From: Nemertoderma westbladi | Taxonomy: Eukaryota > Animalia > Xenacoelomorpha | DNA length: 51,289 nt | Assembly (NCBI GenBank): GCA_032718475.1 | Contig: JAUCBJ010000559.1 | Location: 1 to 51,289 of the forward strand | Reading direction: 5' to 3' | Shown here: positions 3,126-50,729 of the stretch, one piece after another | Position numbering within the stretch: position 1 is the first letter of the stretch | How the letters are laid out: every line of letters begins with the position of its first letter | Notes under the pieces: generated by a model | Database searches by the model: none | What the model was told of the DNA's origin: nothing | What the model saw: only the letters and a program-made list of their open reading frames with translations | Position numbers and translations under genes: made by a program

Positions 3126-3150
3126 TATTTAATTATTTTCTTATTTTTAA

Positions 3151-6781: not shown

Positions 6782-6878
6782 CTTTGTCTTTGGTAGCTGA
6801 TGGTTTGGCTAGCTAGGGCAGCGGTTGGTTTTAGTTACTGTTACAGTTTAACTAGGGCGGCAGCTCGATTTTAGTTAC

Positions 6879-26266: not shown

Positions 26267-27491
26267 ACTACTACTACTACTAGGTCGAGCGAACTCGGAC
26301 AGTGGAAATTAGATCCTTCCAGGCTTCTCGATTCTCCATAGTTGTCGCAATTTCGTTTCTCCCAAGTTCAGTATCCCTTTCAAGTTGATCTATATATGTT
26401 ATGGCCGGTCGTCCACGACTACGCTTTCCATGAGTTGGTTGCCAGAAAAGTAGGTCTGGTATGACCTCGTCTTTACTTCGCCAGCAGTGCTCACTGAATC
26501 TTAATCTGCGTTCACGGAGGGTGGTTGATACAGGCGGTATTGTACCATAAAGCTCGGCGTTTGTCATGTGTTGTCTCCAGCTGATGTTTAGGGCTGCCCT
26601 TAGTAGTCTTGTGTAGCAACCATCAATTCGTTGTTCAAGTGATTTAGTCAGTGTCCAGGTCTCATCCCCGTATAAAAATACACTTTCCACTGTGGCTCGA
26701 AAGAACTTAGTCTTCAGGTGCCTGGAGAGATCTGATTTCCAGATGGTATCCATTTTTGATAGAGCTACCCAAGCCTTTGCTTTCCTAACTTCTATGTCCT
26801 TTTTGCTACTCTCTATCCATGATCCAAGGTACTGGAAGTCATCGACCTTCCTTAGTTGATTATTATCAATGGTTGTCAAGTTTCCATCAACATTAAAGGT
26901 CATGAATTCGGTCTTGGTAGCATTTATATGCAATCCAACCTCCTTAGCAGCCCTCTCCACTTTATTTAGTAGAAGCTGTGCATCTGCTAGCGTATTAGAG
27001 AGCAGGGCGATGTCATCCGCAAAGTCGGTGTCTGTGACTGTAGTTGCCGGATATCTACTACTTCTGCGTTCTTGAAGTGTGAATCCCAGATCTTCACCCT
27101 TTGTGGCTGTCCTCATTGCGTAATCCAGCACAATTACAAATAGTAATGGTGCTAATGTGTCACCTTGCAGTACGCCAGCCAGGATTGAGAAAAACTCAGT
27201 TTCACGATCTGGTGAGAGTACCTGCGCTTCTGTGTCACAATATAACAATCCAATGCCAGCAACAATTACTTCTGGTATTCCATAAGCTCTTAGGATTTCA
27301 AGCATTTTGCCTCTATGGATGGAGTCGAATGCCTTCTTGAAGTCCACAAAAGTCATGACTGCGGGGAGATTCTTTGACTTAATTCCTTCAATCAGTCTCC
27401 GTAGTGCAAGTATCTGAGCTATTGTTGATCTACTTGGTCGAAATCCGTTTTGGCTCTTACGCAGTAGTTTCTCTATGTGAGGCCCAATCCT
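26267..27491 (-). mobile_element. 5'-truncated RTE-clade LINE with an uninterrupted RT-to-C-terminus frame (about 400 codons) and (TAG)n tail
   Basis: QNGFR, FVDFKKAFDSI, GVLQGDTLAP, FADDIALL, YLGSWI, RGRP. The stop codon is the first unit of the (TAG)n tail. Confidence 0.95.
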
Positions 27492-28123
27492 ATATAGAAT
27501 ACAATGTGTGTGAATGCAGTGCAGTGCATGCAGTGCAGTGCATGAATACATGAATACAATGCAGTGAATACAATATAAATATCAGAGAAATCTGTCTGTG
27601 AAAGTCTTGTACCGCACTGGTAATGGTAAAGACCTTTACATACCTCACACAGAGAAAAGCTACATCTTTCTTTTGGAATCGATTAAAACAGAAATGGCAA
27701 GAAGAAGAAACTAGGAAAGGGACAGAGGAGATGGAATGGGGAATAATCATAGTAGAATAGGGGAAAACAAAAGAACAAAAATAATAACCAACTTACTAAA
27801 TACCATGACAGCACAAAGCTAGATAAGAAACCAAGCTAAGTTTCTGACTAAACAGGTAAACACAATTGCTATACTGTTGAGATACGAGTATAGGTACAAG
27901 GTACAGTATTTTTTTTTTTTCAATTCAATTTCTTTTAATTCGCTATCTGGGCGACAATAAAAATTATGCAATATGCACAACAACATAATGAAATAATGGT
28001 TAGTATAAGGATAGTACGACTCGTGAAAATAAATAAAATACATATTGTTTGTGTTACACACGCAGAATAAGCCATATATAGAATCTATATGAGTATGTTA
28101 TATTTTCTATATGAATACATATA

Positions 28124-28662
28124 TGTTAGCTTATTCAATCCCGCTAACACCCCATAAAGTTATGAGCCGATGAGCAATATTGGGAGCCACGAGATTGGGT
28201 AATTAACCAACTCGTGCCATCCCAATAAGAGTGGGAAGGAAGCACACAATAGAGGGTCAGGGGCCAAACCCCCTAACCCAGAGAGAACAGGTGGAGTGAA
28301 CGGGAACACTCCACGGGGCGCCAACAAGGGTATCAACCAATCAGAGGGGGGCAAGGCATCGATTAGGTAGTAATTAGGCCAACCGTGTAATATAATCAGT
28401 AACCTATTAATCAGTAATTCAGTTATCTCAGTGCAGTAGTGCTAGTATAGGTTAGTTAGTTTAGATAGGGGAGCACGGGACTTTAGTTACCGTATCCCGC
28501 CTTCCATATATTATACTATCATCAGATCATATCTATATCTTATACCAATTATATACAGCGAACATCAGAACTCATTTACCGTTTCCATTTACTCTTTACA
28601 CACGGCGGGGACGCGTAAGCTAAACACCGGATAAACCGGGATCCCTCCTGGATCCCGTCACA
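28124..28662 (+). repeat. 5' LTR of a second, diverged member of the gag-only LTR family
   Basis: TGTTAGC...CCCGTCACA, 539 bp, reverse-complement homolog of 660-1199. Confidence 0.93.
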
Positions 28663-28730
28663 GTAACTAAATCAGCTGCCGCCCTAGACAAACTCAATAG
28701 CCACTAGCCACCGAAATCTGCAGAAGAGAG

Positions 28731-29213
28731 ATGAGTCGGTCAGGTGACACGACACCGACGCGGACCCCGGACGAAGAGCTAACGATCCGCGAGGCCGCAA
28801 CCAGGCGATACAGGCCCACGACGCCGGACCTATCGGTAACGGGCGAACCGGAAGTTCAAGGCGAGGGGAGCCTGGAACAAGAGGTCGAGCCAAGAGGAAG
28901 GGAGAGCGAGACGGAGGGAGACGGAGATGAGTCGACACGGGACGGAGATCGGCGCACCGATGTCGCCGGCCAGCTACGGGCCGAGGGCGACGAGCGGCCC
29001 ACCGAAACGGCGACGGTGGGGCCGACGGTGCGACGCCGGACGCGAAGAGACGGAGGAGACATCGGTACCGATGTCGCCGGCCAGCTACAGGCCGAGGGCG
29101 ACGGACGGCCCACCGGAACGGCGACGGTGGAGCCGCCGGTACGACGTCGAACCCGGAGGGACGGAGGAGAGGTCGGCGACGAGGACGTCGGGGTTTCAGA
29201 GCGAACTCCGACG
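28731..29213 (+). CDS. gag: N-terminus of a Gag-like protein, cut by the adapter junction
   Basis: MSR..TTP.RTPD..LTIREA and TDVAGQ...VRRRTRRDGG match 6781-6400; internal duplication of about 32 aa. Confidence 0.8.
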
Positions 29214-29266
29214 AGTACTCTGCGTTGATACCACTGCTTTAAGCAGTGGTATCAACGCAGAGTACT
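29214..29266. other. Technical artifact: head-to-head SMART-type / PacBio ultra-low-input amplification adapters
   Basis: AAGCAGTGGTATCAACGCAGAGTACT at 29241-29266 and its exact reverse complement at 29214-29239. Confidence 0.98.
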
Positions 29267-31360
29267 ATGTCCCCCCACCCTCCCTACTGCTTTTTAAATA
29301 TGGAACGACATTTCCAGGTTTTATTTGTAAATTGCCGAACCCACCCCCCTCCCATCATATATATATTTTTAACTGTTTGATTTAACTATATTAATTAGAG
29401 ATATTCGCTATTTAATATATAGGAATTTATTGTCCCCCCACCCGCCCTACTGATTTATGAAATAATTAATAGGATTCGGGAGACTGTATTGTCGACGAAC
29501 TGAAGGCCAACCGTATTTAGGGACTGTAAACTATATGGAATGTCTCAACCCACGTTGCCATTAGTACAACTATTGAATGCAGACCATTACTCACTGTCAT
29601 CATGCAGTTGGTTACAGCAGACAGTTAGGTAATGAGAATACATAATTATAGAAAACAAATTGTATATTTATTCATAGAATATATATTTATAAAAGTACCG
29701 ACATAGTAAATGTTTTCATATATACAACGTAGTAATAAGTTACAATTTGTAGTGGAATAAGAGTCAATACTATGGGGTTTGATAAAGATTTTTAAGTTCT
29801 GTGTATCGTATGGTACACATATTGATTAGGGCGGCCTTCACTACCTAACGAATTGTTGACTCAAATTTTTCCATTACCAAATTGTAACTTATTACTCAAT
29901 TAAAATAAAATAAAGTAGATGTACTGAAATAGATAGAAAAAACAAGGAAATACGAAAATATAATTTGGAAATGAAATTGAGACATATTTTGTGAATGTTT
30001 GTTACACTTGATAACAGCTGATCACAAAATCACAAAGAACTGAATACTTATAAAATATGCAATTTTAGTTGAGATATAATTGTAAATATTCAGAAAGATT
30101 AATAAAAAAAGGGTAATAATATTTCTGAAATATTAATTGGACGCGCTCAATGAAATTTTGAACATCCCTTTTGTATAATTAATATATACTTCTAGTCTGG
30201 GCCGTTAATATTGAGAAAATTAAATTTTAATAATAATTTTCTAAAATGCAATACATGTACATTACGATCAATGTACAATATATCTTTGGATTCAATTTAT
30301 AATTTTTTTCATTTTAAGATTGTGTGAGAAATGTTCACACTTAGTGAACCACCAGTGCTGTAAAATAAGTCAGTAATCATAAAAGTATCACACATCATGA
30401 TTAAATATATGCATGGAAACTAAATTCGCATATGCAATTAACATTAACTTTGTTTAGGAGCACAAAAAACTGTAATATATTTAATTGATTAATTGGATGC
30501 CGTTTATTGTTTTGGTTACTGTGACTTCAATGATATTAGCTATCTTTCCTTTAACTTTTAGTAATGTATCCAATTACATGTTGGCGAAATTCAATACCAC
30601 GTTTAATACTTTTATGATTACTCAAAATTTGCGATTATAAAATATTATCCAATAGATAATATAAAAAAAGTTTCTAGATAAAATAGAAACTGTCTGACTG
30701 ATAATTACAGCCAATTTTCCTATATTATTGCACGAAAGTTGTGATCGCGCAAAATATTAATGAATACTCAAAGTGGATATATGAAATAAAGAAATTATGT
30801 ACAGTACAAATAATAAGAGTTACGCAATACGGCAGCCAATCATAACAATAATCCAGCCCTATAAAAAATAAATACCAGAATAATATTCTGAAATATCCCA
30901 CCTTTTGGAACAGAGAATAAATAGAAAGTGAAAGATATAAATTGTGAAAGAATTAATATCGTTACTATCTGATATTTCTTATAAAACTTATGAATAATAA
31001 TGCAGCTACCATGGCTACTGAGCTATGTATGGATGCTGATGGTGGTCAGCTGATTGTGGAATTGTCATCTTGTGCAAGAAGCAAGCGTGCCTGGTCAGGG
31101 TCTCTCTTCAACTGTATATTGTTGGTTATAGTTTAATCTCAGATGAAAAATATATAACTGTTGAAAATATACTAAAATAATATTAGGTCTAATTTGTTTA
31201 TAACAGAAAACTGCATAGACCCCAAAGACATATTGTGTTATATATACAGCATGACAAAAAATTAACCATAATTAAAATATATAGAGGACCTACCTACATT
31301 AGCCATGAATTTATCTCTCGCTACAAATGAAACCAGAATTTAACAGGTACTTTGGTAAGT

Positions 31361-31973
31361 CATTAGTGCAGCGTGACCCCGCGCCCGGGTAAGACATTAG
31401 TGCAGCATGGCCCCGTGCCCGGGTAAGACATTAGTGCAGCATGGCCCCGTGCCCGGGTAAGACATTAGTGCAGCGTGACCCCGCGCCCGGGTAAGACATT
31501 AGTGTATGACCCCGTGCCCGGGTAAGACATTAGTGCAGCATGGCCCCGTGCCCGGGTAAGACATTAGTGCAGCATGGCCCCGTGCCCGGGTAAGACATTA
31601 GTGCAGCATGGCACTGTGCCCGGGTAAGACATTAGTGCAGCATGGCACCGTGTCCGGGTAAGACATTAGTGCGCATGACCCCGTGCCCGGGTATGACATT
31701 AGTGCAGCGTGACCCCGCGCCCGGGTAAGACATTAGTGCAGCATGGCCCCGTGCCCGGGTAAGACATTAGTGCAGCATGGCCCCGTGCCCGGGTAAGACA
31801 TTAGTGCAGCATGGCCCCGTGCCCGGGTAAGACATTAGTGCAGCATGGCACTGTGCCCGGGTAAGACATTAGTGCAGCATGGCACCGTGTCCGGGTAAGA
31901 CATTAGTGCAGCATGACCCCGTGCCCTGGTAAGACATTAGTGCAGCGTAATCCCGCGCCCGGGTAAGACATTA
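31361..31973. repeat. 34-bp GC-rich minisatellite (CATTAGTGCAGCATGGCCCCGTGCCCGGGTAAGA), about 18 copies
   Basis: Head-to-tail units with a few recurrent variants. Confidence 0.97.
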
Positions 31974-33082
31974 TGGTGGTGGGTGCCCGCTTACAATACT
32001 GACATTTGCATAAAAATATAAAAGGCTCTGCTCTCCCTGAGAAAATCAGATGGTGCCTCTTATTGGAGGCAACTACATTCTCCTCTTAACTGGAAAAAAG
32101 AAGAGAGATTCAATGTAACAGAAGCAACAAGGGAGCTTATGTCTACCGGACGAATCCAGAAAGCTCTCCATTATGTACTTAAATAGACTGGTCGGGTGTT
32201 TCAAGGAAATGTGTAGTAAGTATCCCATATATGTACGCTGTACGGTACCCCACACGATTATAATCTTAAATATGGAACGATGTCTAACAATGTTAGAAGC
32301 AATATCCAACATTACTTTTGTTAAATTCTATATATATTTGGTTTACCAAGCCTGAAGAGAACCCAACGAGATGTTGCATTCTAGAACAAACTAATATTTA
32401 TATAAACTTGCTGGTAGGAGCACATAATGTTCTAGAACTCTTGATAATTATAATTTTCATATTAAATTGACGAGTGGAGTAAATAACGAAAATGGCGAAA
32501 ACATTATGCTCGCTCTTTAATTTATTTTCTCAGGAGAGATATAAAATAATGTTATATCTATAAATAAGCAATATCTATATTAAAACTTCCGAAACGTATT
32601 TTTTAGAGAAATATGGCCTCCGACCTCCCCTATAGCCATACCTTGCACCACCAAACGAACAATATGATATCAATTAGCCATTCAAAGTTTTTGATTTTTA
32701 TATTTTTGTGTCTATTTTTGTATATTTCCATTTGATCATAAATACATTTAATTGAAATTAATGGACAAAACCATTTTCGGTTGACAAAGTTATCACGAAA
32801 AAGTTTAAAAAATACCAAATGTTACAAAAGTTGGGACAAATACATTATAAAAATGTCATTATTATAATGAATTAATTTTATTAATTAATGGTAGCTTCAT
32901 GAATGTGTATATTTATAATGGTTTTCAAAGGTTTTGTGTATAAATTTATATGTATAATTTTTGCAGCTATTGTTGTCCTTTGCAAGACAGATAGTAATAG
33001 TCCATTACGAGATAGATGTAAGTCGTTGTCAATTACGCGATAGAAAATACTCGCGCTACATTACGACTTACGAAACAGATAA

Positions 33083-33628
33083 TAGTTGATGTACATGGTA
33101 TACTAGTTGATGTACATGGTATACTAGTTGATGTACATGGTATACTAGTTGATGTACATGGTATACTAGTTGATGTACATGGTATACTAGTTGATGTACA
33201 TGGTATACTAGTTGATGTACATGGTATACTAGTTGATGTACATGGTATACTAGTTGATGTACATGGTATACTAGTTGATGTACATGGTATACTAGTTGAT
33301 GTACATGGTATACTAGTTGATGTACATGGTATACTAGTTGATGTACATGGTATACTAGTTGATGTACATGGTATACTAGTTGATGTACATGGTATACTAG
33401 TTGATGTACATGGTATACTAGTTGATGTACATGGTATACTAGTTGATGTACATGGTATACTAGTTGATGTACATGGTATACTAGTTGATGTACATGGTAT
33501 ACTAGTTGATGTACATGGTATACTAGTTGATGTACATGGTATACTAGTTGATGTACATGGTATACTAGTTGATGTACATGGTATACTAGTTGATGTACAT
33601 GGTATACTAGTTGATGTACATGGTATAC
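33083..33628. repeat. 21-bp perfect minisatellite (TAGTTGATGTACATGGTATAC) x26
   Basis: 546 bp of identical units. Confidence 0.98.
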
Positions 33629-34749
33629 AACTATTCGAAGACTATCATATTTATAAATTTGTTTACTTTTCTGTAAACTTTTGAAACATTTGGTGTGAAT
33701 ATTTGAGTTTTTAGAGCAGAAAATGAATTGAAAATGGTTCCTAACTAACACTCATTTCCATGGGAGGAACACAATCATTATTCACGGACACCATATTATA
33801 TACTTTATATTCTTGACCCAGATGGGAATTAGATGGCCGGCCTTTAAAGTAATTTGACATGAAAAAAAAATAGAAAAAACTTATTTTTCTTCTAGAAACG
33901 TAAGACACAATTACAATATAAATATTCCCGGGTAGACCGTACCCTGAAGAATATAATATAATGTAAATCTGTCTGTACCGTATAGGCCTATACTTTTAGA
34001 TACAACACGTATACATTTAGACACATCCACCCGTCTAAGATGGATAATAATACATAGCAATATTATTTATTATTTGGCAACTTATGTACCGGTTGTTAAG
34101 GTTTAGATGCGATTTATGTATTAAAGGACGTCTGGAAACGCACAACCACAAGTGTAGTGTGAAAGAGGGATATTTAAATAGTCTGAAAACAACAATTTAT
34201 AAGTAATTGTCTTGTACCAAACTGAGAAAAGGGTTGCGGTATTTCTAACTTCATTATTTATTTTAAAAAAAGCTTAAACTTTCAAGCATGTTCAAAAACA
34301 TATTGAACAAAAATATAACATAAGTGTGGGATTCCAACATACTAAAAACACAATTCTATCCGTGGCAGAAAAGTAAATTTTCGCTTATTTGAGGACTGTG
34401 AGATAGACTTGAGACAATTAATAATTGTACTTGTGTTATTTATAAAAAGATAATTTATAGAACTGTTTGATCATCTGTTCGATTTTGAGTTATTAGTGAA
34501 TATAAAATTTATTTTTACCTTTCCAATACGCTATAACACTTGCCTTCATTTTAAGTGTTTGAAAAATGTAATTGAAGTTGTCATGTCCATCTAAAACCCA
34601 TTCACCAGTTAAGTCATTTTCTAGACGACAATGAAAGCACGCGAATTATTATACGAATTAAGTAAATTAACTGTCTAATAATTGCAACAAAGTTTCAAAA
34701 AGGTCTGTAATTCGTTTAGAAACAATCTGAAGTTTGGGCAAAAATTACT

Positions 34750-35105
34750 TTGACAGGCAGATCGCTCGCTGGACCTACATAAAAACCGACATACAGACAT
34801 AGTAGGTTGCCATCAAACATAAAAATGACGTCGGAAATGAAATGAGAATCCACGATAACCCCAATAAAAACGTTTTAGTTACGTGGGTTGCTTTCCATAT
34901 ATTTTGACAGACAGACAGACTGACAGATCATCGGACGGGTAGACAGCCTGACATAGAGACTTCGTTAAAAGTGAAAACTCACGTTAGGGATGAAGTCAGT
35001 GTCCATGAAAGACCCCATAACAAATTTGTTATAATATGACAGACAAACCGTCAGAAACACAATCCCAGACAAACAGTTTTCCTTTTCACAGACATTACAG
35101 AGACT
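34750..35105. repeat. Degenerate (CAGA)n-containing repeat related to 24480-25020
   Basis: CATCAAACAT.AAAA...GAAATGAAAT...ACCCC motif and ACAGAC runs. Confidence 0.6.
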
Positions 35106-35417
35106 TTAGTTGTTTGTTATCGATATTCATATACCACCGACTAAAACACGGTGCCTTTTTTTCAGTTGGGTAGGTGGTACAAGACAAATACTTGTAATAA
35201 ATTACAGTTTTCAGATATTTTTGAATATTACACTTTCAACCTATACGAGTAATTGTTTCATAAACATTTTATTGAAACAAATTAAGTAAAATATAATAAT
35301 AATAATTAATATTAAATAAATAAATAAATTAAATACATAAATTAATTAAAAATAAACATTTTTGGTTTCCGTGAATAAAATATTTAGGTTTTGGGAGAAA
35401 CATGCGAGAAATAAATC

Positions 35418-38400
35418 CTACCTCATACTTACCAGTGTCAGTTCGTCGTAGTGTTCGTCATGTAGAACATCCATAGCGGCCTGTACAATTTGGGCGGACG
35501 TTGCATTTGCGACTAACGCGTCCCGAATGCTTGTCCTCAAATTGCACCGCCGTAGGATGTTCTGTGGGTCACGACCCCCACCGGGAAATCCTGTAATGTA
35601 AAATGTCACGAACCACCTACCTAATGACCTACAGTAATGGTCTGAGACTCCCTCAGAATTGTGTCTGCGAAGCTGCTTTTTTAGATTAGCAGCCTCGCCT
35701 ATGAAATGGATGAGGAAATCTGTGGACTCAATACAGTAGACAAATCCCGTAGACGTGTTAGGGATCAGTCTACGATAAGGAGGGATGGGGTTATTGGCCG
35801 CAATGTTATATAAATTGTCGCGTGGGAGGGCAACATTTTGGAAATCCCTGCTGTCAATCATACGCGAAATAAATTTAGCATATATTGACGGCACATTGAG
35901 TAAGGAACGGATTGCTTTGATGTTGTCATCCAAGTTTCCAACAAACATTAGGTTATCCAGAGTACGGACCCTGGATACCAAAACTAAAAGTTGTTCTTTG
36001 AGCCATAGATTCCAAATGTCGTCAGGGTCATGCGTCCGTCCTTTTTTATTCAGTTTATGGCGTATTTGACATGCTACTTTCTCACATGTTTCTCCCAAAA
36101 CCCTGTGCAGAGTCATGGCTAGCACATAAAGTAGGGGCCACTGTTCGCGATGGGCCTTTTGTAGGTCCGACCCTACTTGAATATCAATAGACACATGTCG
36201 ACGTAAAGATATCAGTGGGAAGTGGCTGATATTGTTTACGTCGATATGTGTCTCTTGTGGCGGCGCTAGACGGACCATGACTCTCTGTTCCTCCCATGGA
36301 TCTGTGTCCACTGGTAGACCCTCAACTACCACCAATTGCCCCTGGGAAAATACGTGCCCCCCAACTGCCCCATTGTAAGTTAACCGCATGATCCCCCCCT
36401 TGTGTAAATAAATTTCCCGCCTGTCCATGACCTCCCTTTCCAGTGCCTGAGTTACCCTAGTTGAAGCTAGCCCCCAAGAATCCACCCCACACTGCATCTC
36501 GTCCCTAGCCAAAAATGAACCCCCCTCCAAGTTGACCCTAGCCTTCAGTTTGGTTAGGAAGGCCTCAGTGGCATGTTCCTCAGCTTTGTGCGTACCAACC
36601 AGGGAGGTGTAATCTTCTGGTACGTCTTCCCAGGAAGGAACAATGTTGCGCTCACACCGCGTTCGTATGATTTCAATAGCCGATTCAATCTCCACGTCGG
36701 TGAGGGAAGGGCGCCGGAGAAGCTCTAACAAGCGCCTCAGATCGGCGTCCCCCCCAGCACGGACGTATTGATTGAGTCGGGCTATCCTGAAGGTTGTCAG
36801 AAAGTGCGGTGACAGCCAGATGGGAAGTCCCGATACAGGTGGCAACTGTGCCGGATCGCCGCTGGCGATTAACAGAGTGCCACCGAACGGAACATCCACA
36901 TCCTTGACCTTTCGGAGGACGTGATCTAGTACGGCGAAATCTTCTGCACTAAACAGGCCGATTTCGTCGACTAGAATCACGTCCACACGCTGCAGGACTG
37001 CCAGCCGCACTTTGCTCTTAGCTAACCTCATTAGGCTTTGCTCGGCTAACGCACTTACCATCTTTTTGGTGGCTGTTCCTTGGCCACCAAGGCTAAGGAA
37101 TCGATGGTAATGCATTCCGCCGAGCACACGGGACCTCCGGGCAGTGAGTGAAATAAGGGCAACTTTTAAATTTCGAGCTAAGGCATGTGCGCCTGCTGTC
37201 AGGAGTACGTGAGTCTTCCCTGTTCCCGGGGCGCCTACAATAACCGGAGATTCCACAAATGTGGTTGTGGGATCTTTGATTTTGTCTATTGCTTGTTTAC
37301 AAAAATCTAAACAAGCTCGCTGTTCCAATACTGACTCTACATTTTGTAACGGACATTGGTTTATGACTGCTTCCCAGTCCTGTGGTAAAATGTTACCTGA
37401 AACTTGGCATAAGTTATCATCAGGGAGGTTAGAAACCCCCTGTTCCCTGAAACCCTTTATTAAGTTGGCGTGACGAGTAAACTCCTGATTCGCCAGATCA
37501 GTGGAAAGTGCAGCTTGGAACAGCGATTCCAGCACCAAAGGCATGTTTGTATATTTCAGACCGTCCCCAGCCAAAAAGGATTTTAATACAGAGTTGGAAG
37601 CCATTAACAGTTTTTCAAACTGTCTAGTACTGATAGGCTTATACTGGAGCTGCTGAGTGACGTAATCATGACGAATTTTGAGAGACTCAGCCTCCGTCAC
37701 ATTACGCCAATCAGCAACCAGCTTTGCCTTCTGAAAACATTCCAACAGATTGCCTACGGAATACAGGTCAATCTCGTTAGAAATATGTCCCATAGACATC
37801 AGGACATGGATGATAAATTTTTCGGTCTGCATTGGTGTTACATTGGAATAGACAATCACAACAGGCTTTGTAGACGCCAAATCAACATAACGACTTACGT
37901 ACTCTGGTTGATTTTGAATTATAGGTCCAAAGACCGCCGCTAAAAGTTCCCCAGCCAATGGCTCCCCCCTTCCCGCAATTTCAGTTAAAAAGCTAACAGC
38001 AGTTGCAATACCAGAAGCTCGAACTTTAACAAGATGCCCTATTCCATCCACCCACCGTGACTCACCGAGTTCGCTTGGGAATGACCACTCCCCTTGGAAA
38101 GATTCTGTGATAAAACATTTGTGGTACATTCCCAATTGGTTGAATACTCGCAGTTCTGGAGGACGCAGGTTGAATTTGGTCAAAGAGTCGGCGTAATAGG
38201 GACTGAGGATGTAGTCGTCGATGAGCATAACCTGAGACTCGGTGAACTGCCGTTCTTGAGGGAGATCGACACGTGTGCTCACCGGTCTCAGGGTCTGCCC
38301 ATCTTCTTGGATTTCGATGAGTTTGCGCTTCTTATTGCCGGGGTTACGGTTATGGAATCCGGGTCTGTACCCTGGGGCTAGAGTCGATACGTGTTTAAAT

Positions 38401-41400
38401 TCGACGTTGGTGTTACAGTATTCTAGCCCCAGGGCGTGCCAAATTACCTCGTATTGGGAGAAGTTTCGTGACGTGTATACCTGTTCCCTCTTCCCTTTTT
38501 CTTGAGATGCCATCTGTGCGCCGGAAATTTTTTCATGGACAAGGGGTAGCACATCAACAGTAACCTTGCCTTTTTCTGCTACTGACTCATTGAAAAGGAC
38601 CTTGGCCCTTTCCTCTTTGCCAGCAGCATATTTAATCAGATAGCTAACCATGAAACGCCTATCACATACTTGTACGTTAGTACAAGAACGTGTAAAAGTA
38701 AATAGGCGTGGGATGGTGGGGACAAAAAACTCATCACTACAGGCCGGGTAGTGATATTTTCCAGCCCGGAAATCTTGGTGCAATAAACGTTCCCCTTCAC
38801 CATCCATTGTTGTCAGTCCAAGAGACTCCATGATATCCATGGTTTCGTTTGAAAAAATGTTTTTGCGTTCAATGAACACTGCTTCGGAACGTTCTAGGTA
38901 CCGAGTGTACCGACAAAAAGTGTCACCATTAGCACGAACTTTCTGGCAACGGGCCTTACCTTTATGGCAGCTATGAGTCTGTAAAAATTGTAACCTATTT
39001 AAAAAAGTTCCGAAGTCACCCCAGTCCTTAACTAACCCATCCCTATGTAAAGTTTCAAAATCTGATTCAAATTCTTCCTCAAATAAACTCCTCGACTGAC
39101 AACAAATGCGACTCAGCGTCTTGGCCTTGTCTTCCTTATGTAGAGTGATACCACAATGAATGTGTGGTTTGTTTCCCAAAGCGTTTTGACCCTGAAATTC
39201 AAACCGCCACCAGATGAACCTAACAGGACCGCAAGGTTGCTGTGGGCTGTGTTCAATCCATTTCATTAAAAAGTTGGCCGACCGGTGCCACGCCCGGGCC
39301 AAAATAACTGCGTGGGCTTCGATTAATTCTTGTAAACTTTGAACTGCGCCTATTTGTGCTGCAGTTCTAAGCACAGCCCGATATAGAGGTGCTACCCCAT
39401 GTGTCTCAGAGTCGTTGCAGGTCGCCGTTAAAAAATAATCCCAATTTTGTTCTCCAATCAAGGCTGACAGTTCATTTACTTTCCTTCTGCTGTCCAGTTC
39501 ATCGAATTTTATTTTACTTTCTTCCCCACACGAAGTAAAAACATTTTGATTATCAGTTAAAAATTCCGGCCCCCGTTTGAATACCATTGTCGACGAATTG
39601 TGATTTAATTGGGTATTAATTTTTGCATCGAATAGAAAAGTTTGAAAGCATTTATTCTGGGCAGTAGGAAGGTCCATATCCCTGAGCCTGATTAGATTAT
39701 GATCCTGCAACGGGGCATAACCTCTAGGAGCGTTATCCCGATCAGAAAATAAAATTGATGGCAGAGCTCCCGTCGCTGACTTGGCATAGTCGCAGTGCCA
39801 AAAGATCCGCGGATACAATATGGCTTCAGGATATAACAACGGCACAGACCCTTCACCACTCAACGAGGTAATGTGGTACATGATTTTGTTGAAGGTGTTA
39901 TGGGAGTACTGAGAGACCCGGCGGCGGAGGAGACCCCACCCCTCATTAAGGAGAACATGTAGGCGGGTTGATTGGCTTGTGTCGTATAGAGGAACCCGGT
40001 CACCCCTGGAGTACAAAGTGTCGCTGTCCTCGGGTTCCTCTATATCCAGATCGTCGTACGTTCCCAGCACAATACGGTCGTCAACTGCGGTGGTCTCTAT
40101 GGCAACATCTTCTTCATACTCCGAGTCAGAGTCTAGGAAGGCCGCCAGGTCCTCAGGGAGTTGGGGTGCGGGGAGGGGTGCAGAGCCAGGGGATTGGGGT
40201 ACAGGGAGGGGTGCAGAGTCAGGGGATTGGGGTACAGGGAGGGGTGCTGGATCCTCCAGAACTGGAGATCTGGTCCTACCCAAACCAGATCGTACTCCTT
40301 GTAATCGGGAATCCACCACTAATGTTTTATCACTTTTCCTTAAAAGTGGAGCGCCATGCCATTGACAAACTGCGGTGGCACAGTGGACCCCGAAATCCTG
40401 TAAGCCAAATGGGCAGCGCCAGCGGGATGTTCTGGTACAACCATCATAGGAACACGGTACGGGCTCAACATCTGTTCCCTTGACCAAAAGATTACCTGGG
40501 TGATCCGCACAAAACATTTTGGATTGGCCAGCGTGGTGAACCAACTGACTGCTAAGGTCAACACCTACCGCCCCCCTTTTAACCAAAACAATAAACGAAA
40601 ACCTTTTATAAATAATATTATCCCTAACCTGTACGTCTGTTCCCACCCTATCCCCATTGACATTCCAGAACTGCAACCTATCCCCCCATCTAAAAATGAT
40701 CCCTTCCCTACTCCCCATCATCTGAACGTAGTATTCCCCATCATCAAAGTTGAGCCCCCCAGTGAATAAGCGCCCCCCTTCCCTTGTAAAGATGTCTATG
40801 TCCCCCCCGGTTGGTATATTAATATTAGCCCTACGAGAAATTCCCTGAAAAAGAGTCAGAATCGATGTGGCCTTCTGGAACACCCCGTCTGTCGTCGGTA
40901 CATTCAGTTCCGTCAGTTTGTCCTGTATGAATTTGTCTGTCGAATGTGTAAGTTTGTGTCTAACCCCCGTTTTAAGATCCCCCGTCACCTCTGTCAGTAA
41001 AGTCTTGGCTGTCGGATTCCTATCTACTAGTGTCTGTAAAGTTCGGTGTGTCAGTGGGGAATGACAAAGTATCCTAACTAAAGTCCCTAAAACAGTTATG
41101 TCAGTATTTAGCTCAGTAAACGGCGTCATTCCAAAGTCGTCATTAGGATGCGCCAATGGCAAACTGTAGTTGTGGTACTGGTCCCACCCCCTGTCCCGTG
41201 TCGTGTAATTTTGCCATTGGAACAGAGCCTCGTCACATGGTACAGTCGTCGCCCCCCGTATACAGTCCTGTACGTCCTCTGTATTATACCGTGGTGTCCG
41301 TGGCAACGTCATTTGCTCCACAAATTCCGGACCCAGAAAGGCGCGGTTGGAAACGGACTGGGCAATATCGGATCTGTTCTCTAGAACAAGAGTCTCCGAT

Positions 41401-43423
41401 TTGCCCAGCCGCTCGTCAACCACGTGGCAATCTGGGTCCGAAATTAAGGAGCAAGTGGAGATGCCGAAGTACCCCCCTACCCCCTTAACTACGTCGTTAC
41501 TAGCCGTCATGTTCCCCGCTCTACCCTCCCGTACTAGCTGTGGTACTACTGTCACTGGTGCCAGTCGTTCTAAGTTTTGTAAGCTGTTGTCATTCCCCGG
41601 GTGTCTTGGTGCATGTATGTATGTCCGTGTAGCGTCGGTGTGGTGTTCACAGAAGGCCACACAGAGTCCCTCATTTTCAGTGATCACTAAGGAAGGTTGG
41701 ACAGTCCAATCTAAATGGGAACTGTCCCGGGGCCAGTCCGGTCGAACACCTCGAGACATGTACGGTTTGGGATTGAATTCCTTATATCCTGGGATAAATT
41801 TATGGATGAAATTGTTAAATGGTTGCAAATTGCAGCGTTCGATAAACTCATGGCAACCGAGAGGACATTTCACAACCGGATATGGAAATGAATCCAACGC
41901 ATTGGCCATCGCACCATCCTGTAATGTACCCACCTCCCTTATAAACCACTCCCTTATTAATGTTATGTCCCTAAAAATTGCCCTATCACCCAAATGTTCC
42001 CGCACCTCATTTGAAAACTGATCCCTGACCCCCCACCAAGATTCCCTTAAACTGTCCGGTATAATTTTGTAAATTCCCCCATCCCTAGACTTTTTTAACA
42101 AATCCCACAGGTACGATGGCCAAGCGTTTTGCCATTTCGGTTTACTACCCCCTAAACCTACACTAATGTACCGCCTGCATTCCCTACAAACTGTAAATGG
42201 TCCCCTTCCGTTCCCCAGTTCCCCATACTTCCTATTTACACGTTCCCCATTATATACCCCCAATGCAACCACCATCCCAGAAACACTAGCCCTCATACAA
42301 TTACTACACCTATCTACTACCTCACTACTAGCCCCAACCGATCCTACAACCCTCACCCCTTCTACAACTTCTACCCTACCATTTTCCCGTTCTACCCAAA
42401 TACATTCCAACCTAATATTGTCCCCTACATATGGTTCGTACCCCCTAAGTGTTTTATTTCCTAGTTTTTCTACTAAACTACTTTCCCTACCTACATAATA
42501 ACTGTGTCCGATACTATCCCTACCTACATCACTCGGCCCCCCTACACTACTCGGTCCCCCTACACTACTCGGCCCCCCTACACTACTCGGCCTCCCTACA
42601 CTACTCGGTCCCCCTACACTACTTGGCCCCCCTAAACTACTCGGCCTCCCTACACTACTCGGTCCCCCTACACTACTCGGCCCCCCTACACTACTCGGTC
42701 CCCCTACACTACTCGGCCCCCATACACTACTCGGCCCCCCTACACTACTCGGTCCCCCTACACTACTCGGCCCCCCTACACTACTCGGTCCCCCTACACT
42801 ACTCGGCCCCCCTACACTACTTGGCCCCCCTACACTACTTGGCCCCCCTACACTACTTGGCCCCCCTACACTACTTGGCCCCCCTACACTACTTGGCCTA
42901 CCTACATTACCCACCCCACGATTCATTTCCATATCCGGTTGGGCGTAGAAATGCCCTCTCGGTTGCTGGAAATGGGGAACCAATGCAGTATAGTGGCCCG
43001 GAACGAAACCCAGATGAATAACCACCCCCGCTGCCCCGATGATAATGTCGTTCCCCATTTGCCCATCCCACGTATGAATATTGAAACTGTAACCCAATGA
43101 ATATGAAAGGGCACACAATATTGCATGGGTTCCCCATTCCCTTCCGTGACGTAGGTCCTCTATATATCTTGGGTATGTCTTCCCCCCCATCTCCAAAAAT
43201 CCCCGATACTCTGGGTTATCGTTGAAAAAATTGGCGGCCGTATTACGCAACTCACCCACATTGTACAAGTGTCCAGTTCCTAAGTACACGGCGGTGACTA
43301 TTGAGGCAAACATGCAGTCCCCGTCGTCACCGCCGCATTCTAGTTGAATAAGTCCCAATTGGGCAGCAGCCCGGCCAATAGTCCGCCCGGTGTTTGTGAA
43401 GTTAACCACCATCGGATTCGGAG
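35418..43423 (-). CDS. Giant Helitron-like Rep-helicase: OTU protease, Cys/His-rich regions, HUH/Y2 Rep, Pif1 (SF1B) helicase and GIY-YIG-like domain (terminal exon; ATG at 43412, 2664 aa)
   Basis: OTU DGDCMF...WG...GHY; Rep motifs YFLTATC, EFQGQNALGNKPHIH, YLIKY; helicase GAPGTGKT, LVDEIG, FGG...GDPAQLPPV, QWPL...MTLH, VSRV; GFVYCI...FIGEAANLKKQLRRHNS. No stop in 8 kb. Confidence 0.93.
42530..42905 (-). repeat. 18-bp coding minisatellite (GGPSSV, about 20 copies) after the OTU domain
   Basis: In-frame tandem units. Confidence 0.95.
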
Positions 43424-43734
43424 CTGAAAAATATAAATAGATAATATCAGAAAAAGTTACAGAAACAGAATCTTACACTATGGAAGTTGATGTTATATTT
43501 CTATTTCAAAGTAATACATTCGATAATAATAATTATAATCTAATACAATTATTAATAAAAAACAAATATAAAATTATATCAAAAAATAATACAGTAACCC
43601 TTGTTAACTAATTCAAAATAGAATGCTGGATGGTAACTAACTACGTAAATAGCTCAGAATAAACGTTGATCAGTAAGCAGTGCAAAATTAGTTGCTCAAC
43701 AGCAAGAAACATGTAAACTATAACAAAAACATAT

Positions 43735-43872
43735 AGACAGGCAGATCAACAAACAAACAAACAAACAAACAAACAACAAAACAAACAAACAAACAAACAA
43801 ACAGACAGGCAGGCAGACATACAAACAAAACAGACAGACAGACACACAGACTGACAGACAGGCAGACAGACA
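43735..43872. repeat. (CAAA)n/(CAGA)n microsatellite in the predicted last intron
   Basis: Direct inspection. Confidence 0.9.
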
Positions 43873-44968
43873 ATTAATTCATAATTTAACTGATAATTAA
43901 TATTAGAATTAACATTGCTAAGCTTTCATTGATTGAACAGATATATTATGCCAACGAAGTAACACAATACTATGTTGCAGGAAACGAACCAAGAGGAAAC
44001 TACCAAGCAAACAACTCGCAGTCAGTGGGTAAAAACATGTATAAATAATATCATCAGTGTTTATTTAATCTGTGGAACAACTTTGACTCGTAATAACTCC
44101 AGTAATTCTGCCCGTCCCCTTTTACAGTTTCATTAATATAAACTTACGGAAATTAATTTAATTCATTAGAAACTTAAACGCGCTCTATTGAACAGATCAA
44201 GCCGAGTCTGTGATACAATTAGATAATAAATAACAATCTGTATCATAATAGACAAGCGCGGATCAAATATTAAGTGCCAATAGCGAATTCGCTGACTATG
44301 ACTCCACCATTAATTAAATAAATAATAATTAATTTGATAAGATATAATCCCCCCGTCATTCAATTCCACAATCATTTTATATCTCAATTTAAATATATCA
44401 ATGGAAAATGAGTTACGAGTATCAAAGTTGATTCACAAATAACAACAACAGCAACATATTTACATTGGGATTATAAACCCAATCAACAGTAAATATATAA
44501 AGATACTTATATTCTGTTTGTAAACTAATGAGAATGATGATGAATGTGGAGAAATAAATGAATCTGTAATGTAAATAATAAATTAATAGAAAAGTTAATG
44601 AGATAATGGAGGTGTTAATGAAGATGTCGTTACAATAAGTGGTGGACCGGGAGTCTATAATATTATGAGTTAAAGTGCGCCGGTGAGTCAAAGATTCTGC
44701 CAATTTGCCAAAAAGGGTGACACAAAAATTATGTCCAATAGTCACAATGTACGGCCTTTGACAAACATTCTGACACTTGATCACTTTGATACACAAAGAC
44801 ACCCAAAAACAGTGTGATACATAAATTTATCTCTCATGTGAAACGCAAATATTGCTAATATATTATAATTTATATTTTTTAACCGTTTTGATAATAAATT
44901 CCTGAAGAGCTGAAAAATAAATATTAAAAATTAAAACAACAAAATATTAATGATTTTAATAAACTCAC

Positions 44969-45289
44969 TAGTTTCCATAGCGGGTCCCACTGTAGGAGTT
45001 GTCCCAAGCGATTGGGACACATCCGGGACACAGTGGGACCCCGGTGGTGGAGAACTTGGGGAGGCGATGGAGTAGGACCCCGGTGGTGGAGCGCTTGGGG
45101 AGGCGATGGAGTAGGACCCCGGTGGTGGAGCGCTTGGGGAGGCGATGGAGTAGGACCCCGGTGGTGGAGCGCTTGGGGAGGCGATGGAGTAGGACCCCGG
45201 TGGTGGAGCGCTTGGGGAGGCGATGGAGTAGGACCCCGGTGGTGGAGCGCTTGGGGAGGCGATGGAGGTGCCAGCTGAACCGAGTGAGG
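44969..45289 (-). CDS. Predicted exon 3 (Ser/Pro-rich; 42-bp repeat IASPSAPPPGSYS-like, about 6 copies)
   Basis: CAG acceptor at 45290-45292, GTGAGT donor after 44969, 321 bp, phase 1-1. Confidence 0.6.
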
Positions 45290-45396
45290 CTGAGGAGTCA
45301 GAGTCAAAAACAAACAAATATAATATTAATATAACCATAAAAAATAACCCAAACAAAAAGTTATTTACGTGCTATTAAAAAAATATATTTATTTAA

Positions 45397-45670
45397 AAGT
45401 AGGGTAAGGTTTCCTTCGACCGTTAGGTCAGGGAATAAACACAAAGTATGACGACTCATTTCCAGTACGGTCCCCCTAGAATTATACTCCCCAGAGGAAA
45501 CTGTGACTCATTTAGCTATCATTTTAGTATGCAAGTCAGATATGCACCCTGGCTAGTCCTTTGAAAGCGTTCGTGGCGAAACGGAAACGCATTTGCCCCC
45601 CCATCCAGGGATCGAACCCACGACCTCGGGGAGATGTGAATTCAAACGGATTTAACCATTTGTCAGTTCA
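45397..45670 (-). mobile_element. Probable tRNA-derived SINE in a predicted intron
   Basis: Box B GGTTCGATCC (45609-45618, minus strand) in a T-arm-like stem, eroded box A, T-rich end. Confidence 0.55.
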
Positions 45671-46107
45671 ATAAAATTGTATTATTACTAGGCGAATTAA
45701 AGTCGAATGCACAGGCGAAGGCATCGATATTTTACTTGAGAGGAATTCATTTTAATTGTATCAAAAATCCTCCACCCCTACATTAATAGAGTTGTTCGTG
45801 TAATATCGGAGATAATAATTAAATGTACGGGGGTAATATATTTCAAAACGCGCGACAGTTTCTCATTAGTTACATAGTCATTTGTTGTTCAACTAAAGTC
45901 ACAAGTTGTGCAGCAAACTGGTCCTCAATGTTAAAAATAGAAGTGAAAGAACAAAAGTTACGTACGATATTAATAAAAATTATAATATTAAAAATTACTG
46001 ACATAAATAAATAATAGACGTAGAATATTGTAGAACATATAAATACTGGAAATATAGGTTTAGCTAATCTGCGGTAATTTAAATATTATTGATTAAGTTA
46101 AACTCAC

Positions 46108-46257
46108 CGGAATCCACAGGGGGCCCCACTGGAGAAGGTGTCCCAATCGATTGGGACAAGTCCATCCCACAGTGGGACCCAGTTGGTGTAGTTGGGGACG
46201 GTGACCCAGTTGGTGAAGTTGGGGACCAAGATATGGAGCTGTCTGACGTGTCCGGGT
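46108..46257 (-). CDS. Predicted exon 2 (Ser/Pro/Thr-rich, 50 codons)
   Basis: TTTGTTTCAG acceptor, G|GTGAGT donor, 150 bp, phase 1-1, GC-rich against AT-rich flanks. Confidence 0.72.
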
Positions 46258-46687
46258 CTGAAACAAACAAACAAACGGGTAATATAAATATAAAAATAGA
46301 ACCCAAACAATTAAGTTATATCCACATTATACAATTAAATAGTTATATATAATTTAGTAACAAGCAAACAGCGAAAAAACTAAAACAAAATTTGAAATGT
46401 TGTTCTAAAATATGTTTTGGTCTTTCTGTAGAGTTCATATTGTGGGTAAAATACCGCTTTTTCATAACATTATATTAATGTAATATATTTCAGATATAAT
46501 GATAGAACAATTATTTATTATACAAAATAAATATATAGAAACATGACGTTCAATAAAGTAATAATACATTGTATTTATCTAATAACAACCTCCAAAATTC
46601 TCCTACCACAAATAATTAAGATACTGGTACTTAATTTACTTGAATATTGATAAACTATAAATACACATAAAATAAAAATAAACTCAC

Positions 46688-48002
46688 CACTTGTATGGGC
46701 GTCGCCCACGGCCGAGCGTAAACGTTTCGCGCGCCGCTGCCGTCGGAGGTAGAGAGGCTCCCCGGCGGAGCGACGGCGTGAGGTAGAAGGAGAGGAGGAG
46801 AACGAAAGCTGAGAGAGTTGGAAGGTGGGTGAAGGAGTAGCCGAGTCGTAGATGGTAGGTGAGGTAGCAGTGGGTGTAGTATGGGTCTTCCTAGGGCGGG
46901 TGGTGGTGGTAGCGGTTGGGGTAGTAGGGCGAGGCGTCTTCTTAGGGCGGGTGGTGGTGGTGGGGGTCTTTGGGGAGCGGGAAGTAGGTGGAGAAGTCGA
47001 TGGGCGAGGAGCGATTGGAGAGAAGCGGGAACCGGGAGAAACATTAACTGCGGTTGGGGAGAAAGGAGAAGCGGGGGGAGATAGTTGAGAACGGGGACGA
47101 CGTCGAGAAACAGTAACGAATGGTGAGGGCGGTGGGGTGGTCATCATCGGGGAAACTGGTGGAGTATAATCGGGTGACATAGGGGTGAGGGAGGATTGCG
47201 GGGAGAGAAATCGACGTCGTGGTGATGGTTGGGGAGACGATATGAAACGGGGGGCAGGTTGGGGAGAGGAGATGAAACGGGGGGCAGGTTGGGGAGAGGA
47301 GATGAAACGGGGGGCAGGTTGGGGAGAGGAGATGAAACGGGGGGCAGGTTGGGGAGAGGTGATGAAACTTTGACGCGGGGTAGGTTGGGGAGGGGAGACA
47401 AAACGTTGACGAGGAGCTGGTTGGGGAGATGAGATGAAACTTTGACGCGGGGTAGGTTGGGGAGGGGAGACAAAACGTTGACGAGGAGCTGGTTGGGGAT
47501 GGGATATAAAACGGCGACGAGGGGTAGGTATAGGGACAACAAACTGTGGATGTACTGGTTGAGGAGCAATGTTGCGGAGGGGTCTAACTGTAGGAGGATT
47601 AAAGTGTTGGCGGGGAGCGATGAGACGGTGGTGGAGGGCAGATTGGGAGATTGGCGGAGTACAGACGAGTTGAATACCAAAAGGGGTTAAAAGCGCAGCA
47701 GCAGAGGGCGGTAGAGGAGCGGTGGTGGGTGGAGTTGAGCAAACGGGAGGTCGGTTGGTGATTAGAGGGGCAGTGGCAATGGTAGTGGTAGGTCGTACCG
47801 GTACCGGTAGTCGCACGACCTCGGCAAACGTCCGAGATCGTACCGGTACCGGCACTAGAAGAGGAGTAGTAGCGGTAGGTGGGGCAGGAGGTGGCTGAAG
47901 AGGACTATCCTCAGGTATGTTCCTGAGGGGACAGGTTGGCCTCCGATGGTTTGGCGGACCAACCTTCCCCCCACAACGGCCACAACGTATTTTCTTGACC
48001 AT
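46688..48002 (-). CDS. Predicted exon 1: N-terminal zinc knuckle plus Pro/Ser/Thr/Arg-rich disordered region
   Basis: ATG at 48002 (MVKKIRCGRCGGKVGPPNHRRPTC), RFISSPQPAP repeats, G|GTGAGT donor after 46688, 1315 bp (phase 1). Confidence 0.72.
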
Positions 48003-49174
48003 GATCTGACTGTCTGATAATCGCAGTAATGCAAATAATCGAAAATAATAAGCCAAATAACAAAACAAGTGTAAATGTAATCTGTAAATTATGTTAATCT
48101 GTAAATGAAATATTTACTGTATTTGAGGCCGAATAATATGTCGGTACGCGGTAGGCCTACGGTCAGACTATCAGATGGTAGTGTGAGTGTGCAGAAGACT
48201 GAGAGTAGGGTATACCGGACCGGTCTGCCGGCAGCCGGTACGCCTAGCTAAACAGTTTTTAAATTGACTGCAAAAAGCTGAAAATCCGAACTGGTAAACC
48301 TGTAAACAAAAAGCAGGGGGAACCTTCAGACATATAGACATAGGGCCTAGGTCTAAGTCTAGACATGTTGAGTGGAAAAAAAGGCCAATACCGGCACCCG
48401 GCTCATCTACCTGTCTACAATCTCTGAATATCTATGATTTAGTCTGCCCGAGCCCGTATGCCGTAGGCGTACCGGTAGATTTGTAGAAGGCTCATCTATT
48501 ATTATTTACGAACATGTCACATGTAGCATACCGGTAGCCTACCCGGTGAGCCTAGTCCTTTTCTTGCAGATATGACGAAAAAGTAACCTACCACTAGCGG
48601 CGGCAGTGTGCAGTGACGAAGTGTTGCAGACGGGGCGGGACCGGCGACCGGGCGACCAACAATACTGAATACGGTAGGCTTCAAAACTCGATAGGCCTAC
48701 TGGCCTAGGGCTGTAGGGTAGACTGTTTCTTGCTAACTGCAAAATAATTGGTACCGGTAACCCAAGCAGCCTCGTTTGCCCTGCTGTCTAAGGCAACTGT
48801 GACTCTGGAGTGTGCAGTGTGGTACTTGTACTGCAGTACTAATACCGGTAGGCTCCTACTCAAACAGAGTGGTGGACGCTGAACGTACATGCGCGCAATG
48901 TAAAGACTGAAATACTGAATGAAGGTTCCGTTGGCCGGAAGTAACAGACATCTTGAAACGTCATTAACGTCATTCCACTGCCCATTGGTTGTTTGATCTT
49001 AAGGTATTATATTATAGGGATTTCCCTAATGAAATAACCCTAAATATTTATCCCATTTCAAAATTAGGACAGCTCTATTATTCTAATTAATTCTATTGTA
49101 CCATTCTCATGTGGGATGATATATTATTGGAAAGCAATACAGTAAAACATATTGGCCTATTAAGGTTGCTTCAA

Positions 49175-49450
49175 GCAGGGTAACCTCAAGATGTTTGCAT
49201 CTCGTTTTCAAGGGGGTCCTTCAAATATCAGCTTGTAACATTTGGTAACTTTACATAGAACATATATTAAGGTTGGTTAATGATAACCTCCAAGATAATG
49301 CATCTCGTTTTCATCGCGGTCCTCAAATCAGCAGCTTGTAACATTGAATGGTAATATGAACATAAAACAGATATTTTGTTATTTTGGTTCAGGGTAACCT
49401 AAATATATTGCATCTCGTTTTCAAGGGGGTCCTCAAAACATCAGCTTTTA
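49175..49450. repeat. Three degenerate direct repeats of about 105 bp
   Basis: TAACCT...GCATCTCGTTTTCA...GGTCCT...CAGCTT x3. Confidence 0.75.
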
Positions 49451-50729
49451 ATACTCAAATTGTTGCAAATACAAAGTCGCAACGAAACAAAGCCCAAACT
49501 GGAAACACTGTTCAACTGATTTCACGAGATAATATTAAGGAGACCACGCGGCCCATCACAATAAACAGACACAATATATTACATTTCGTTATCATACTAT
49601 CAATTATTTATTATTACAGAATTTTGGACTTTGCCACATCACTTGTAAAATTTACAGCAGTAAAGAAAATGTGTCTGTGAATGCGAAACATGAAACCCTG
49701 GGGGCAGCCCTAGGGCTAATGTCTTAGTGACAAACTGAAGGCTCATATCTCTTGGCAATTACTTGGAAGGTTGTAAAGATGCCACTCAAACTAACATGTA
49801 ATGGCGTAGGATATCAACGTAAATTAAGCTCTAAAAAAGAAAGCTTTCTTTATTTATATTTCGCTGAGAAATCATGCCAATTAGAAATTACATGAATCTT
49901 AAACTCTTATATTAACTCTGATATTCATTACAGGATTATATCAGCACTCCCCTTACTTCAACTGGGATTGTGTTAATCGGTTGCACACAGAAGAGTACAA
50001 TCTAAGAATTCAAAACGAAATCAATATCATGAAGTCAATACTGTGAAATCCCATCTATTACCAGTTGCTTAATTTTAGAATAAAATCGACCTGCAAATAG
50101 TGAAGAATTCGTTTTGGAATTTCGAAACCACGCTGGTCCGATGCGCGATATCGCGTTTAGTTAATAAATTGAAAACTCCATCAATTTATATGCACCCAGT
50201 AATAAGAACCCGCAATAAATGTAAATATATACATATTATTCTAGAAAAAAATTTCTCAAAAAGTATGAAGTCTTAACATTGGTGACACGAAAATAGCCTA
50301 TTGCGATTCAGGACATTGCGTTTAATATAAAAATCGAAAACCCCATCAAATTACGTAAAGGCGTTAATAAAATATTGCAACTTTTTTGAAATTGATAAAA
50401 TTCTAGAACTGAAAAAAATTATTTTTTGAACGGCGATGTTTGGGGTTTTCAAACATGGACAGTCGGAAAGAGGACATCGAATTGAGTTGAAAATTGAAAA
50501 CCCCATCGAATTTGGACCAACCGTTCCGGAGTTATAGCGGATTGAAAAAAATTTACCCCCCCCAGTCGCCAAAAATTTACAGTAACTGAAAATTTTGAAA
50601 AAAAAAATTTTTTGCGATATTTTTGATGGCGAATCGATTGGCAGTACTGACTACAAAAAAATTTTTTTTTTAATTTTTGGTCAGAAAAAAAACTATGTAA
50701 AAATACCATGTCTATGTTTGCATTGAGTA

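Follow-up and report, generated by a model that had tools for sequence, protein, structure and literature searches.

HELIANO recognises two groups of Helitron-like elements, HLE1 and HLE2, and mentions four or more clusters that it leaves unclassified (PMC11417382). A third clade, HLE Paramecium, lies outside both groups and has transposases of 3,052–3,592 amino acids (aa), with satellites between the open reading frame (ORF) and the element ends (PMC13085455). Helentrons, which belong to HLE2, have an APE endonuclease at the C-terminus of the transposase that has been proposed to nick the target (Thomas et al., PMC4067079). Here we describe a gene of Nemertoderma westbladi that combines Helitron-like enzymes with a different C-terminal nuclease. 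It lies on contig JAUCBJ010000559.1 of assembly GCA_032718475.1, in a stretch of 51,289 nucleotides, the whole of which we call the window. We estimate a probability of roughly 0.75 that its long, stop-free minus-strand frame encodes the enzymes of a multi-copy, rolling-circle Helitron-like element that forms a branch of its own, and that the activity of the SLX1-like nuclease carried by its family has likely been lost in this copy.

The original prediction, made from the DNA alone, had described a stop-free frame of 2664 codons, and the minus strand is indeed open from stop to stop across 35418–43472 (2,684 aa), with an ATG at 43412 that would give 2,664 aa (35418–43412). The motif positions that it listed were all exact, namely the OTU Cys (43314–43316) and His (42993–42995), Rep motif 1 (39414–39440), PHIH (39156–39167), YLIKY (38628–38642) and Walker A (37212–37235); the HRVLG that it named lies at 36093–36107. 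Pfam searches of the frame recovered PIF1 (E = 3e-11) and OTU (E = 2e-5) above cut-off, and Helitron_like_N (E = 1e-4) and GIY-YIG (E = 0.007) below it. The Rep (HUH-Y2) region (38349–39986, minus strand, as are all features of this gene) contains motif 1, E1405, H1417, H1419, an H-C-C-C cluster, Y1591 and Y1595. It is followed by a family-conserved spacer with an RPPEL motif (37293–38312), modelled mostly at a predicted local distance difference test score (pLDDT) above 85, and by a Pif1-family superfamily 1B (SF1B) helicase (35913–37262) with a full motif set, of which motifs V and VI are family-specific.

The five numbered Rep residues, together with K2066 of Walker A, E2150 of Walker B, R2218 and R2481 in the helicase, were present in the window protein and kept in 51–53 of 53 aligned rows of the family, and the window protein departed from the family at 8 of 70 conserved Rep positions and 9 of 70 helicase positions. 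Transposition of Helraiser depends on every one of the corresponding residues, in the HUH motif, the tyrosines, Walker A and the arginine finger (PMC4778049). A model of residues 1140–2040 (pLDDT 84) had the Helraiser transposase (7lcc) as its sole significant match in the PDB (Foldseek E = 8e-8), with a Z of 15.3 and a root-mean-square deviation of 4.8 over 428 aligned residues; the next-best Z was 4.8. The protein thus has the combination that defines Helitron-like proteins, a single chain in which an HUH Rep with two tyrosines precedes a Pif1 helicase. It shares with Helraiser and other HLE1 proteins the HUH domain with two tyrosines, an FxTxTCN-like motif 1, YxxKY and the Pif1 helicase (7lcc; PMC4778049), but it is about twice as large and has other N-terminal Cys blocks, another spacer and a fused nuclease; TC...CTRR ends of the HLE1 type were not found around the element. 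In HLE1, a 5' TC and a 3' hairpin with CTRR go together with insertion between A and T. Replitrons, on the other hand, have an HUH Rep without a helicase, unlike the window protein with its complete, fused Pif1 domain.

We compared the gene and its relatives with 97 HLE1-type proteins and 10 full HLE2 frames from metagenome loci. Among matches to the canonical Helitron motif 2 in viral contigs (L001–L025), 23 of 25 were frames of 250–580 aa without Walker A, likely Reps of phages or plasmids, and these short frames were used as the tree outgroup; two HLE2 motif patterns yielded no usable match in viral contigs. In the Rep tree the family formed one branch (support 100/98) beside a branch of HLE1 plus HLE2 (98/95), and the helicase tree concurred (one family branch, 100/100); under a mixture model the family branch stayed at 100/98. 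Left out of the trees were 27 of 85 Rep rows and 15 helicase rows, and more in the mixture-model trees and those of the approximately unbiased (AU) test. Placing the family within either reference group was rejected, both for HLE2 (p-AU 0.007 for APE-bearing and 0.007 for other members) and for plant, animal and fungal HLE1 (p-AU 6e-6). The markers agreed with the trees. DUF6570 occurred in 9 of 10 HLE2 references and APE in 6 of 10, and each was absent from all 19 family proteins scanned by Pfam; the canonical motif 2 was found in 0 of 70 members; a W..Q..V..SR form of motif VI was found in 66 of 70 members versus 0 of 107 references; and the family profiles for the N-terminus, pre-Rep region, spacer and tail matched 0 of 107 references. 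The earlier proposal of a distinct lineage is therefore upheld by separate Rep and Pif1 phylogenies, each with one family branch outside the HLE1 and HLE2 references, by the rejected nesting and by the missing HLE2 markers. Two divergent Rep-helicase proteins, L027 and P0316, fell firmly in neither HLE1 nor HLE2 and are possibly further small lineages.

These data also bear on a rival reading, in which the family is a rapidly evolving side branch of HLE2 (or HLE1) and a GIY-YIG has replaced its C-terminal domain. The layout of Rep, helicase and endonuclease with an optional OTU is Helentron-like, and the family profiles favoured HLE2 slightly over HLE1, at 46.6 versus 41.1 bits for the Rep and 80.5 versus 72.5 bits for the helicase. 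Likenesses to Helentrons and HLE2 extend to the single frame for Rep and Pif1, the C-terminal position of the endonuclease and the large size (PMC4067079, PMC11417382). HELIANO, moreover, reports one HLE2 family from Sphagnum magellanicum, HelenSM92, with a captured GIY-YIG (PMC11417382, Fig. S8), and this family might then be a member of ours. HelenSM92 is the only Helitron-like element with such a domain that we found in print; it is classed under HLE2, is described as having terminal inverted repeats and inserting at TT, and was compared by its description only. An offshoot of this kind is nevertheless unlikely given the rejected nesting, the lack of DUF6570 and the motif counts. The family has an SLX1-like GIY-YIG in place of APE, a motif 2 without RG and different motifs V and VI. 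HLE2 elements have short asymmetric terminal inverted repeats, hairpins and TT insertion; in the window, inverted matches between the flanks were of 11–13 bp only, at chance level.

In 71 members the helicase is complete and is followed by no fewer than 60 aa; a family profile, built from up to 14 sequences of the family itself, recognised the tail that sets the family apart in 70 of them. Pfam GIY-YIG was independently found in 16 of 18 members scanned (15 over cut-off), and both misses terminate before the tail. The profile matched five SLX1 entries in the PDB, with a best E of 4.5e-15, ahead of bacterial UPF0213 at 4e-6, and the tail of a single family member gave the same order. SLX1 uses Tyr, Tyr, Arg, His and Glu to cut flaps, forks and Holliday junctions, and its two Tyr, Arg and Glu are named as invariant or highly conserved (PMC8287910). 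All four were kept in 51 of 70 family members. The resemblance to SLX1 (PDB 4xlg, 6seh and 7cq2), with Y, Y, R, H and E in most members, is limited to the GIY-YIG core, which is here fused to a transposase. A GIY-YIG-like tail rather than APE had been predicted, and with APE in 0 of 19 family proteins this proved correct.

In the window copy, however, the domain (35433–35792) is degenerate. F2570, Q2580 and R2626 stand in place of the Y, R and E typical of the family, and the protein so lacks three of the four residues (Tyr, Tyr, Arg, Glu) expected of an active GIY-YIG; the first Tyr and the His are retained. Of 17 conserved positions in the tail, 6 differ from the family, and on its own this tail had no GIY-YIG match in the PDB. 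In three runs, contigs from other copies have Tyr at 2570. Judged by these residues, the nuclease is likely dead in the window copy, whether or not it is needed by the element. The description of the transposase as intact thus stands for the frame, the Rep and the helicase, but not for the active site of the nuclease.

Could the family instead represent the wider eukaryotic membership of the Paramecium clade? Both fall outside HLE1 and HLE2, both have proteins of the 3,000-aa class, and in both satellites lie inside or beside the element, in the window on the 3' side of the ORF (PMC13085455). Eight Paramecium elements (Hel01, 06, 08, 09, 15, 17, 19 and one unnamed), read by eye, have canonical forms of motif V (..H..QG) and of motif VI (LYTA.SRV), and their ORFs end about 80–100 codons further on with no GIY-YIG, and the string 'giy' occurs 0 times in those parts of the paper's text and supplements that were examined (PMC13085455). 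HLE Paramecium is also described as targeting telomeres, of which the window element shows no sign (PMC13085455). We regard common membership as very improbable.

Apparently, then, the window gene belongs to a clade of Helitron-like elements that has no name yet and in which an SLX1-like nuclease is family-wide. The literature on Helitrons, GIY-YIG, SLX1 and the third clade that we searched, with Repbase, Dfam and subscription journals outside the search, held no description of the family, and 'unnamed' accordingly refers to that literature, to the exclusion of Repbase and Dfam. Likewise, we found no Helitron literature on hagfish (Myxine). Three further papers link GIY-YIG to other elements (PMC6431247, PMC3627910 and PMC5718144).

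A search with the Rep region returned 13 long proteins at 23–37% identity and 707 clusters at E ≤ 0.001, of which 168 had E ≤ 1e-30; the family rows analysed here were drawn from the best 150 of the 707. By profile, members share a collinear layout of two Cys blocks, a third Cys/His cluster, the pre-Rep region, Rep, spacer, helicase and tail. Two organisms are named among the 30 clusters looked up, a hagfish (Myxine glutinosa) and a tunicate (Styela clava). Exact-pattern scans of viral contigs and prokaryote genomes found no relative, and such scans are insensitive enough that absence is not implied. One relative is present as six full-length copies of 2,455–2,468 aa that are about 99% identical (98.5–99.5% in the 8 pairs compared), two of them on contigs of the same length. 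Between 337 and 1,812 contigs per run (X1–X3) matched the window, in several identity classes and some with frame-shifting indels; the comparison covered 33700–42500 and 42900–49919, and depth is not a copy number. Among in-frame differences between copies, 22 of 31 were synonymous versus 23% by chance (p = 2e-8), the 31 being those in frame among the best-supported 80 of 848 places. The suggestion that the element was recently active or under selection gains support from both this excess and the six near-identical copies of the relative.

Instead of belonging to a transposon, the gene could have been domesticated to serve the host, or could replicate an endogenous virus-like replicon. Splicing, purifying selection and the lack of termini would suit such an origin. 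Against it stand the many variant copies, some with shifted frames, the near-identical multi-copy relatives, an ORF scan that showed no capsid gene or viral neighbour, and a fold whose match is a transposase, and we consider it the least probable of all the explanations discussed here.

The ATG at 43412 is probably not the start and was rejected as such, since a polypyrimidine-AG acceptor at 43423 (phase 1) is in frame with the long ORF and three predicted exons lie upstream. Splicing these exons to the long frame predicts a stop-free protein of 3,263 aa, with a GTGAGT donor in phase 1 at each upstream exon; its N-terminus would comprise a zinc-knuckle-like motif and then a long Pro-rich stretch. 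Predicted exon 1 (46688–48002) has the ATG, the CxxC..H..C zinc-knuckle-like motif and a Pro/Arg/Ser-rich sequence, and its junction was seen in no contig. Predicted exon 2 (46108–46257; GT-AG, phase 1) is Ser/Pro-rich and is a diverged duplicate of the exon 3 region (77% identity) that is replaced in some copies; contigs of runs X1 and X2 have a joint, 46111–46382. Predicted exon 3 (44969–45289) is Ser/Pro-rich and contains 39-bp repeats, and exon 4 (35418–43423) is the long frame with all enzyme domains. This structure was predicted ahead of the contig comparison, in which a 260-letter contig of run X5 linked 44969 exactly to 43423, with 126 and 134 letters on either side and six differences. 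Because run X5 is only guessed to be DNA, the contig would represent a sister copy's transcript or else a copy without introns. Going by the splice signals, the gene probably has four exons, with 35418–43423 as the final one.

The N-terminal half of the long frame begins with an OTU-like cysteine protease (42981–43325; Cys33 and His140). OTU was found in 5 of the 18 family members scanned, in one of them at the C-terminus, and a Ulp1 protease in one; by this distribution both proteases are accessory in the family, and OTU was rejected as a defining trait. As OTU is optional, the defining order is Cys blocks-Rep-Pif1-GIY-YIG. Every domain of the predicted order OTU-Rep-Pif1-GIY-YIG is present, although its first member is optional in the family and its last is degenerate in the window copy. 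A low-complexity linker of about 130 aa follows the OTU, encoded by an in-frame 18-bp tandem repeat of about 21.6 copies (42523–42910). Next come family-conserved blocks with two CxxC pairs and CPxGC...C..H (41133–42311), which have no recognised fold and whose profiles matched 0 of 97 HLE1 and 0 of 10 HLE2 references, and then a second Cys/His cluster (40323–40550) with six Cys/His that are invariant in the family alignment, likely binding zinc. The Cys/His-rich stretch of about 800 aa noted earlier is real, but it is concentrated in three conserved blocks and preceded by the repeat linker. In an N-terminal model the first 240 residues were mostly at pLDDT 85–97. Compared with known structures, the region had no Foldseek match, a best Z of 3.4 and no usable match in the ESM Atlas; as the 681-residue model has low-confidence halves, a new fold is a possibility only.

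Variant contigs of similar depth class in runs X1–X3 indicate that the repeated element spans at least 16 kb (33700–49919, minus strand), 33700 being the start of the comparison. The 34-bp satellite and 49716–49726, next to a hairpin, share an inverted match of 11 bp that was rejected as an HLE2-type end, being at chance level (three seen, about 1.5 expected by estimate). Rfam had no match in 29200–51289. Homogeneous satellites lie 3' of the gene at 31354–31973 and 33079–33628 (34 bp × 18; 21 bp × 26 at 99%), and, by analogy with Paramecium Helitrons, they may lie inside the element. High-copy repeats include a (GACA)n-bearing sequence at about 34640–35100, related to 24480–24970, and a region of very high depth from about 49950–50075 to 51289; a short high-copy piece in intron 2 (45609–45645) is, we presume, tRNA-like. 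At 29214–29266 there is a near-perfect palindrome of 53 bp, made of two head-to-head copies of a unit that we take to be a low-input amplification adapter. It is likely a library artefact and chimeric join, and the DNA to its left may thus not be a true neighbour. That DNA contains a pair of long terminal repeats (LTRs; 660–1199 and 6879–7419, 99.8% identical) that enclose only gag-like frames with a weak zinc knuckle and simple repeats, a search for pol being negative; a partial copy of this LTR element (660–7419), inverted and more diverged, at 28124–29213, ending at the palindrome; a 2.8-kb duplication (7420–10232 and 11390–14198, 98.9%), both copies of which contain a fragment resembling a non-LTR retroelement, flanked by perfect inverted repeats of 45 bp; a broken LTR retrotransposon (15709–23291) with a weak integrase zinc match and motifs that we assume to be BEL/Pao-like; and a reverse transcriptase fragment of a long interspersed nuclear element (LINE; 26280–27581; Pfam RVT_1 E = 2e-27). 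With these LTR, BEL/Pao-like and LINE pieces, the surroundings resemble a repeat-rich animal genome.

Several observations count against our interpretation of the gene. Neither termini nor a hairpin or an insertion site could be located around the window element, so that mobility of this unit is not directly demonstrated, and the splice resting on run X5 could reflect an intron-less copy. Under the mixture model the HLE1 plus HLE2 branch dropped to 89/77, and sister status of the family to HLE2 (p-AU 0.11) or to HLE1 (p-AU 0.27) was not rejected. The references are few, their 10 full HLE2 frames were picked by the canonical motif, and they omit the Paramecium clade, proto-Helentron, HelenSM92 and the unclassified clusters of HELIANO. 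Family rows were selected by similarity to the window, with 557 weaker matches outside the sample, and the selection estimate draws on a small share of the variable places. Finally, 16 of 70 members (some truncated) lack at least two of the four nuclease residues, and the nuclease may hence be dispensable.

By analogy with Helraiser (PMC4778049), the HUH domain would nick the left end of the element and hold it on a tyrosine as a 5'-phosphotyrosine, the Pif1 domain would unwind 5' to 3', and the second tyrosine would close a single-strand circle that could insert elsewhere. The N-terminal Cys blocks likely bind zinc and the ends of the element, as the N-terminus of Helraiser binds zinc and DNA, and the OTU would act as an accessory deubiquitinase. 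For the SLX1-like domain we tentatively propose, with slightly less than even confidence, that it trims a flap or resolves the strand-transfer junction, or else opens forked target DNA, in the place of the Helentron APE. That two unrelated nucleases, APE and GIY-YIG, became fixed at one position suggests that they serve the same need.

We give about even odds to the broader proposal that this is a major unnamed clade of eukaryotic rolling-circle elements, equal in depth to HLE1 and HLE2 and extending to a vertebrate, the hagfish, with a fused SLX1-type nuclease, a zinc domain of new fold and insertion intermediates that the element resolves for itself. If this is true, the clade would have been overlooked because its motifs depart from those underlying Helitron profiles. 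Current schemes have two widespread Helitron clades and a ciliate clade, and a further branch would alter that classification; one that comprises hundreds of clusters, has members in chordates and includes nearly identical intact copies would also expose repeats that annotation may miss. To our knowledge, circle integration and junction resolution in Helitrons are still open questions. Insertion intermediates would, if the proposal holds, be resolved by the element itself rather than by host repair, and a flap or junction nuclease fused to the transposase, in parallel to the Helentron APE, would make junction resolution testable by mutating a single domain.

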